Assembly: GCA_052327205.1 (NCBI GenBank) | Contig: CM126218.1 | Coordinates: 69,812,001 to 69,876,000 of the forward strand | DNA: 64,000 bases | Reading direction: 5' to 3' | Origin: Somniosus microcephalus | Taxonomy: Eukaryota | In this document: positions 21,416 through 24,312 of the stretch, piece by piece | Layout of the letters: each line of letters opens with the position of its first letter | How positions within the stretch are numbered: position 1 is the first letter of the stretch | Notes under the pieces: model-generated | Seen by the model: only the letters and a program-made list of their open reading frames with translations | The model's database searches: none | Told to the model about the DNA's origin: nothing | Translations under genes and position numbers: made by a program

Positions 21416-21484
21416 ATGTTTAACAGCAAGGCGTTAACCAACAAAGGGAAGAACAATGCGACCTCTAACCCTATTCCCAAGCAG
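21416..21484 (+). CDS. AHCYL2: Candidate AHCYL2 alternative first coding exon, MFNSKALTNKGKNNATSNPIPKQ
   Basis: acaATG, 23 open codons, phase-0 donor CAG|GTACGG; no recognisable repeat, locally CpG-retaining. Confidence 0.6.
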
Positions 21485-24200
21485 GTACGGAGGGTGAAAC
21501 TGCACTTGGTTGGCTGAAATTGCTTGGATGTGTTGTAGAATGATTTTAGGGTGGTCTTTTTGGACCATGTTCATAGTTGTATTGTACAGAACAGGAATAT
21601 AGCAGTATCAATCCAAACTTTTCATTTCTTAGTATATGAAAAGGTTTTTCTGCTGAGCTTTCTAATTCTATGTGGTTCACAGCAATGTTGTTTTAGTCCC
21701 AGAAACCATTTTAGTTTTAGACTCTTTGGATATTGAGTTTTAGTCTTGGTATATTTATAGTGTTCAGAGGACATTTAGTTTTAAACATATTTTTTGTTCC
21801 CAAATTTTAATTGTCTTTTAGTCCTGGAAAATATTTTAATCAGAACATTTACTTTCTGCTTTTGATATTAGTGTTGTTTTTTCAGGATTTTCTTAATTTA
21901 TATTTCAAAACATATCAACTGTTTCACTTCTCAAGTCACAAAAATGTGGACTATTTAACTGGTGTTCTAGTCCTAGAAATAATTTTAGTCTAGTTATACT
22001 TCTCCAAACCTATTCAGTTTTATTCAATTTTTAATTTTCATAATTTAATCCTAAATTTAGTTTGTCAACAATATATCTTCCTTACTTTAGATGACACAAA
22101 CCACACTGGTTTACAATTATCATGATACAAACGAGGAGAAGCAGCAGTTGTGTTTTTTATTTTGCTGTGTGTGTCTGTACCAGGCAGAGCATTGGCCCAT
22201 ATCCATGTCGCTGTACCAGGCTGGAGTCTCCCCTCAATATCCACGTGTCTGTTTTTGTTTTGGCCACAGGGGCTTGGACAGATCAATTTATTCATTTTTT
22301 TTATTCCTCAATGTTTCTTTTGCAAGTTTTCCTCATTTAATATCTCCTTTTCCTCACTCGGTCAGTTGAAGAATGGCGCCTCTGACAGTGCAGCAACCCC
22401 TCAGTACTGCACTGGAATATCAGCCTACATTATGTGCTCAAGTTGTGGAGTGAGGCTTGAACCTGTAGCTTTCTGATTTGGGTGAGCGTGCTATCAACTG
22501 AGCCAAGATAAATCATACCCACGTTATCTTGTTACTTTTTGCGTTGGTGTGCACCTGAAACCAATCCACATCAACGCAACTGAGGCAGTGTCGCTGCTGC
22601 ACAAGACGCATTTAAGACTTGGTGTTCTTGCCTTTGTGATGTGTGATGGGATTTTTTTTGTGTATTATGTAGATACTTTTAAATCAGAATTAATATGCCG
22701 TGCTATTTCTGTATGCTGGAAATAGTGGGCTGAGCATGGTGGTATGCAGCCTTGTCGCACTGCTTAACCCTGAGCTGTCCCATTGCCACGGGAGTTTTGT
22801 TGCAATTCCAGAACATTACCCACTTGGCCTCCTTTCTTACTCCCTCCACTACTGAAACACTCATCCCCACCATCACCTCGAGGATTGATTTCTGTAATGC
22901 ATTCCTTTCTAGCCCCCTCCTTCTCTGCTTTTCACACATTCTGGATAATCCAGGGCTCTGCTTCCTGAGTCCTCCTCTTCACAAAGCCCCATCTTCACCA
23001 AGCTCCACTGACTCCATGTGCTCCACCAAATTAGCTTCAAGACCGTTCTCGTTGTTTTCCGACCTCTCTGACGCCTCACCTCACCATATATGGGAAACCA
23101 GTTTTCCAGCTGCACGGCATATCCCGCACCCCCTCTTCCTCTGGCTCCAGATTGTTGATCATCTCCTGTCCTCCAGGACACACTCTACCAGAAGCACTCC
23201 TAAATTCATTATTCCCTACTTGCCGTCTGCCTCTCCTCCTTGTAACGTGCTCTTCAGACATTCTTTTACACCAGGAAGATTACGTCAATGTAATTTGTCA
23301 CTAAACTGTTTTCCCACTGATTAGGATCTCTTCACCACAGGGTCATAATTTAGCAACAACTTGATTGTAAACTGGCTGCTGAATTGTCTCGGGAGGGCTG
23401 GGTGTGGTTGTATTATTTCACTGACCAATGCAACCTATTTTATCTGAACAGTAATTGTGATGCGTTTAGTGCCGTTTCTTGACACAAAAGGTGGAATCTC
23501 TGTTGATGGTTTTTTCCTTCTCCATCCTTTTTGCCATCCAGGCATTGCAATTTTGAGGGGAATGGGGGGAGAGGCGTATAACCATGCGTCTTACTCGAGG
23601 CTGGGGATTAAAAGAGGGCAATGACTGAAATGTGAAAATCATTATGAAAAATTATTGCAGATTTCAGTATTTATACTGATCCTCTGGAAGGTCAGTAATC
23701 CTGTAAATGTAGCTTTGTTTTAACCTGGTAATATATCATGGATTCCTCGTGATTGATCGGCATCAGCACTGACGATTTCTGGATTTCTTCTTGGTTTATT
23801 AGCTGGTTAAGGAGGGCAGAAAAGTTGTTCCTGCAGCTCTGTCAATGCTGCTGTGTAACCAGTGGGTAGGTATGAAGGAGCAGGAGGGGATTACTGTCCT
23901 GATAATTAAAAAAATATATACCTGTGTATATATTTTACCCTCTCTTGTGGCAGAATGGCCTCCACTCATCACCTGTCTGCCCCCACCCCCTCCAAGTGGT
24001 AACAGCAATGTTGTGCACTTACCATATCGGGGAAGTGCTAGCCAGATCCCACACCTACCCACCATATGGCATGGTGCATTGGTTGAGCCAATACACTGTG
24101 CAACCCAGTTAAGTTGTTTATAAACACCGGTAAACATGCTGATCCCAGATTCTTGAAACCAATCTACAGTAAATACCCTTTCCATTTTTCTTATGAATAG

Positions 24201-24312
24201 CAGATCCAGTTTGCTGACCAGAAGCAAGAGTTCAACAAACGTCCAACAAAAATAGGTCGTCGCTCGCTTTCTCGATCAATCTCCCAATCCTCAACGGACA
24301 GCTACAGCTCAG
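24201..24312 (+). CDS. AHCYL2: AHCYL2 (Long-IRBIT) coding exon 2, IRBIT Ser-rich domain
   Basis: Encodes [37 protein letters not shown], the AHCYL2-type sequence (AHCYL1 has ADDMQEFTKF, from memory). Acceptor tagCAG, donor G|gtaggc; 112 nt, phase 0 to 1. Confidence 0.97.

Follow-up and report, generated by a model that had tools for sequence, protein, structure and literature searches.

Proteins of the IRBIT family act on IP3 receptors and bicarbonate transporters, and they do so by way of a Ser-rich tract that is phosphorylated. The splice variants V1–V4 of mammalian Long-IRBIT (AHCYL2) were reportedly described by Kawaai et al. in PNAS in 2017, and the sequences called V3-type and V4-type below are those that we take to carry these labels. 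The long (V1, V2) and short (V3, V4) variants differ in their N-termini, stability, targets and expression, according to an excerpt of PMC7966362. In IRBIT (AHCYL1), the PP1 site comprises residues 40–44 and controls Ser68 (PMC5173324, in excerpt); PP1 binding has been demonstrated for IRBIT, whereas the site of its paralogue AHCYL2 is stated by similarity only (excerpt of PMC4930912). Published forms of the RVxF consensus include a strict five-residue one (excerpt of PMC3792071), and the RKIQF of inhibitor-1 follows (R/K)(R/K)(V/I)x(F/W) (excerpts of PMC5639349 and PMC5758809). The choice between the two sites of a NAGNAG acceptor is described as simple, largely stochastic and governed by local sequence (excerpts of PMC2699507 and PMC1449888). 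Our literature search, whose scope left the primary variant paper outside, found no paper that ties the PP1 site to NAGNAG or first-exon usage, and none joining IRBIT with KQIQF, AHCYL2 with "alternative first exon", or NAGNAG with AHCYL2; the excerpts of PMC10111226, PMC5746516 and PMC7898672 held nothing further on variants and PP1.

Here we analysed a window, the whole 64,000-nt stretch of Somniosus microcephalus DNA to which all positions refer, for which the original prediction had proposed that first-exon choice and a NAGNAG acceptor together switch a PP1-docking motif. What the locus holds is the shark orthologue of an already known vertebrate isoform system, whose start exons and one-residue splice are annotated widely. 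As in mammalian Long-IRBIT, long and short alternative N-termini occur, and the common exon 2 onward, the ±Gln acceptor and a homologous V4-type exon are shared with V1–V4. The differences lie in the short exons and in an added one: the last residue of the V4-type exon is Arg in the shark and Met in tetrapods and sturgeon, the candidate V3-type exon closes with Lys-Gln in place of the tetrapod Lys-x-Gln, and elasmobranchs have a 30-nt microexon after exon 2 that sets them apart from mammals. By their predicted joins, the shark short-exon ends would restore an RVxF fit that is absent from tetrapod short isoforms.

Results

The window carries the shared part of AHCYL2 on the plus strand:

24201..24312, plus strand: common exon 2 of AHCYL2, from its translation and the homologue search
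36294..62822, plus strand: remaining AHCYL2 coding exons (adenosylhomocysteinase-like domain), separated by introns, from tblastn with four cartilaginous-fish AHCYL2 proteins

Adenosylhomocysteinase 3/AHCYL2 proteins were the top named homologue matches, and the core exons are mostly 90–100% identical to shark and chimaera proteins in the same tblastn comparison. Both an AHCYL2-type exon 2 and the full adenosylhomocysteinase-like domain are present in the window, and on this homology the gene is AHCYL2 (Long-IRBIT) of a cartilaginous fish. The locus had earlier been framed as IRBIT; the named AHCYL2 matches and the tblastn exon map rule out IRBIT/AHCYL1 as the gene and put its paralogue in that place. 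Exon 2 encodes the Ile-x-Phe half of the RVxF-type motif together with the tract equivalent to Ser68–Ser77. The Lys-Gln-Ile-Gln-Phe register and the downstream Ser68/71/74/77 spacing are shared with the PP1 site of IRBIT, and all four of these Ser numbers land on Ser when counted along exon 2. A PDB search with exon 2 returned 0 matches. The principal long first exon (with the LISN appendage, ending ..TVKK in sharks) had no tblastn match within the 64-kb window and is expected to lie upstream of window base 1.

The junction in front of exon 2 offers two acceptors:

24198..24203, plus strand: NAGNAG tandem acceptor, from the sequence and from ±Gln isoform pairs in Carcharodon, Callorhinchus, Ascaphus and Equus records

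The two AG acceptors, three bases apart and ending at 24200 and 24203, are in frame, and use of the upstream AG places one extra Gln before Ile-Gln-Phe, exactly as had been claimed. The ±Gln forms are annotated in other jawed vertebrates, namely other sharks, chimaera, frog, ray-finned fish and mammals, mostly in predicted models. In records of the same, mostly predicted kind, white shark and chimaera have the long exon joined to either acceptor, and donkey and tailed frog have both short exons, each with both acceptors; the mammalian 611/610-residue isoform pairs are likewise ±Gln forms at this acceptor. In other species the isoform records have the acceptor used both ways; from these comparisons the tandem-acceptor option is old, and both acceptors are probably used in this species too. 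Among classified records, the +Gln share was 10/16 in cartilaginous fish, 34/64 in mammals, 5/12 in amphibians, 12/55 in ray-finned fish, 1/56 in birds and 0/37 in reptiles, a tally that counts records rather than independent species, with groups hand-assigned for 283 of the 325 collected proteins and unclassified and junction-less rows excluded. The +Gln form is thus present among the cartilaginous, ray-finned, amphibian and mammalian records and nearly absent from those of birds and reptiles (+Gln in 1/93 classified records), where the option would apparently be dispensable. In three bird records whose translation continues through the intron, the residue preceding the last Gln is Ser or Pro; no NAG codon encodes either, so there is no upstream NAG in them. 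The upstream AG appears to have been lost or to be unused in birds and reptiles (P0021, P0035, P0043 and other records).

Five stretches running from an ATG to a phase-0 GT donor had been listed as alternative first exons, and all five are found in the sequence at their positions; the inventory missed the principal long exon 1, outside the window.

16856..16906, plus strand: coding portion of a V4-type alternative first exon, ending ..HWR, donor GTGAGT, from homology to V4-type N-termini
21416..21484, plus strand: candidate alternative first exon, likely V3-type, ending ..PKQ, donor GTACGG, from V3-type N-terminus scores
10588..10638, plus strand: IGK candidate, perfect donor, poor Kozak context, without homologue; unsupported
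10918..10977, plus strand: VIEQ candidate; unsupported, compatible with chance
18621..18674, plus strand: CVE candidate; unsupported, compatible with chance

Among the 221 distinct phase-0 ATG...GT donors in positions 1–24190, 7 matched at least 7/9 consensus positions, the threshold of our scan, and five of these belong to the listed candidates. As background, 611 minus-strand donors in 63.8 kb included 30 at this level, or about 11 expected per 24 kb, so the 7 upstream donors are not above chance. Further ATG...GT stretches at 2925–2969 and 5956–5985 have donor matches of 8/9 and 7/9, respectively, and no homology support. Self-comparison within the window gave no matches that would mark the candidates as parts of repeats. 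Neither TATA nor CpG signs separate real from doubtful first exons, the homology-supported 16856 exon itself having no TATA match and no CpG enrichment. The IGK, VIEQ and CVE stretches were rejected as homologues of known first exons, resembling neither the V3-type nor the V4-type set (p 0.11–0.65). With three of the five exons unsupported and only HWR clearly homologous, the five-way combinatorial promoter-plus-NAGNAG system of the original prediction is unsupported.

The 16856 stretch reached a mean score of 44 against 10 V4-type N-termini, the best among 1548 background ATG...GT stretches (shuffle p=0.001), and it has both the ..F-x-x-P-x-W-x N-terminus homology and the phase-0 donor of V4-type exons. 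By this homology it is the counterpart of a known first exon, and the only one of the five candidates so supported.

The 21416 stretch is the best V3-type candidate, its use being unproven, and it is likely a V3-type exon by its resemblance to known ones. Among the 259 upstream plus-strand candidates it ranked first by global score against 22 V3-type N-termini (8.8 versus 0.6 for the next independent candidate) and fourth by profile. It is Lys/Asn-rich, ends in Gln like V3, and has an A at Kozak −3. A V3 orthologue is also to be expected, since both tetrapods and teleosts have exons of this type and the V4-type exon is present here. These points weigh against the reading that the stretch is a chance intronic ATG...GT and not an exon, which would take away the core of the proposed switch and which we regard as a somewhat doubtful possibility, compatible with the other readings discussed below. 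In favour of this chance reading, the donor match of 7/9 is at the background rate, and over both strands the stretch ranked 3/1548 against V3 N-termini with a non-significant shuffle p of 0.067, rising to 0.27 with the last residue also fixed; the two higher-scoring background matches come from one locus, minus-strand or downstream. There is no TATA match or CpG enrichment upstream of 21416, although the supported V4-type exon is no different in this. The open frame had 0 matches among 1.84 billion representative proteins, a search of low power with 33 residues. Shark short-isoform proteins were absent from the best 120 of 383 matches and the best 120 of 214, and from the 15 listed of 1219 main-cluster members; all of this is a weak blank, as such isoforms would be hidden in a cluster of that size.

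The fit of each join to the PP1 motif was assessed with a loose consensus, [RK]-x(0-1)-[VI]-x-[FW], and with the strict five-residue form, and was tallied over the 310 collected proteins with a junction, 61 unclassified ones being excluded. The long-exon joins fit the loose consensus with or without Gln in 188/188 records, all of which have two Lys upstream of the junction, and the long-exon ±Gln forms meet the strict consensus as well. By comparison, 0/28 V4-type joins and 1/33 V3-type joins (a teleost) fit, and the tetrapod orthologues of both short exons have no basic residue at −1/−2. The first exon, and not the 3-nt choice, thus decides the fit across vertebrates. These records bear out the earlier statement that the exon 1/2 junction divides the motif and that the first exon decides the basic residue before Ile-x-Phe; they do not bear out a conserved 3-nt on/off switch, the same on/off outcome being absent from orthologous joins across vertebrates.

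In this shark, the joins that the original prediction gave as fitting or failing the motif are correct under the loose consensus. The ..HWR joins meet the loose form with and without Gln and the strict form only with it, and the ..PKQ joins meet both forms only without the extra Gln. The proposed PKQ toggle accordingly holds as a matter of consensus fit at the 21416 exon, and only there, in an exon whose use is unproven. The strict form makes the fit of each short shark exon depend on which acceptor is taken, with opposite requirements in the two. In teleosts, V3-type exons end in Arg-Lys (P0142, P0254) and, in contrast to those of tetrapods, agree with the PP1 consensus whichever acceptor is used.

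Downstream of the docking motif, the Ser-rich tract has splice options of its own:

26421..26450, plus strand: 30-nt elasmobranch cassette microexon whose inner donor, following 26429, gives a 9-nt form, from isoform inserts
34420..34563, plus strand: exon 3, in which another AG lying 15 nt in would give an alternative start at 34435, from the sequence

The microexon has a branch-point-like, pyrimidine-rich acceptor and two donors, and inserts 10 or 3 residues into the tract. Its 30-nt form is identical at 10/10 residues to isoform inserts of Carcharodon, Stegostoma and Rhinoraja, and its 9-nt form gives the 3-residue insert of two Carcharodon isoforms; the insert is absent from the chimaera records examined. 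Sharing it with sharks and a ray, the locus would be of elasmobranch origin. In IRBIT numbering, it would fall just after the Ser77 equivalent and break the every-third-residue Ser spacing. Starting exon 3 at 34435 would drop five residues (AASYT) of the tract, and the equivalent residues are missing in 12/213 collected proteins (chimaera, frog, mormyrid fish and one bird). Both of these options are better supported than the extra first-exon candidates.

Discussion

Judged from the joins and their homologues, it is the first exon that probably sets PP1 docking for the most part, and the 3-nt choice would be a local, stochastic fine-tuning or, at 21416, a toggle by coincidence. Common exon 2 supplies Ile-x-Phe and the Ser tract and the first exons the residues preceding them, such that promoter choice may set the upstream charge and, through it, the likely PP1 affinity. 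The tandem acceptor would then displace that charge by a single residue in some of the transcripts, and its choice is likely to be governed locally and stochastically. Because exons with phase-0 donors tend to end in AAG, CAG or AGG (Lys, Gln or Arg), the splice-site consensus alone can produce Lys/Gln patterns at the join. For the 21416 exon, the clear-cut on/off outcome is probably coincidental and specific to this lineage. In the long isoform, the −Gln form Lys-Lys-Ile-Gln-Phe matches the RKIQF pattern of inhibitor-1, an unrelated protein, and omission of Gln would therefore leave an equally canonical motif instead of a loss. Tetrapod V3 and V4 short isoforms, without the basic residue of the PP1 motif, may escape PP1, a prediction that reaches beyond this shark. 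Two observations stand against the fine-tuning view. The upstream AG persists or recurs among cartilaginous and ray-finned fish, frogs and mammals, a pattern consistent with selection for the +Gln form, and the strict consensus makes acceptor choice matter for both short shark exons.

PP1 docking could instead be largely indifferent to the junction, with the Ile-x-Phe core and nearby basic residues binding weakly in all isoforms and the N-termini acting through stability and target choice, as published for V1–V4; we consider this unlikely. Ile-x-Phe is present in every isoform owing to its location in the common exon, and variant-specific stability and target spectrum are reported (excerpt of PMC7966362). 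V3-type exons retain a Lys at −3 along with a polybasic N-terminus, and RVxF peptides bind PP1 better when they carry N-terminal polybasic stretches (excerpt of PMC5639349), so that a failed pattern match need not mean an absence of binding. Against indifference, the three published consensus forms in the excerpt of PMC3792071 and the one in that of PMC5758809 all call for a basic (or His/Leu) residue immediately before the core, and in 188/188 records the long exon has its two Lys there.

A real elasmobranch switch, in which first exon and acceptor gate PP1 docking and alter dephosphorylation of the Ser68 equivalent, is improbable. In its reciprocal form, the V4-type exon would need +Gln and the V3-type exon −Gln. 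Such a switch draws on the dependence of the ..PKQ fit on omission of Gln under the loose consensus, on the opposite demands of ..HWR and ..PKQ under the strict one, on the control of Ser68 by residues 40–44 of IRBIT (PMC5173324, in excerpt), and on the donkey and frog records with both short exons and both acceptors. The general NAGNAG acceptor shares with this one the in-frame 3-nt choice of ±Gln and a pyrimidine at both N positions; here, unlike the general case, the optional residue falls within a short linear motif and could matter more than usual. Proof that a NAGNAG is functional within a docking motif would provide one of the rare cases in which 3 nt make a defined biochemical difference. 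On the other side, the switch is not conserved, given the tetrapod short-exon orthologues without a basic residue at −1/−2; the long form fits with either acceptor; the outcome varies with the published consensus chosen; and the 21416 exon is unproven (p=0.067, with no protein record among our searches). Improbable as well is the wider version, in which the elasmobranch 3-nt choice reciprocally gates short-isoform docking, tetrapod short isoforms have lost the site and become PP1-uncoupled, and microexon and splicing rewire both dock and phospho-relay.

The introns of the locus carry several repeats and elements. Intron 1 holds a 632-codon open frame resembling a LINE reverse transcriptase (12373–14271), between the VIEQ and HWR candidates. 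A retrotransposon-like element with gag-, RT- and integrase-like frames in pieces occupies 37865–42185 of intron 4 on the minus strand, and the near-identical direct repeats that flank it (37865–38149 and 41899–42185) suggest a recent insertion. An intronic tandem array of 39–41-nt units lies at 53194–53839. At 57671–57868, the units of a 58-nt tandem repeat reproduce the last part of the exon that ends near 57697 together with its donor, producing repeated donor-like sites.
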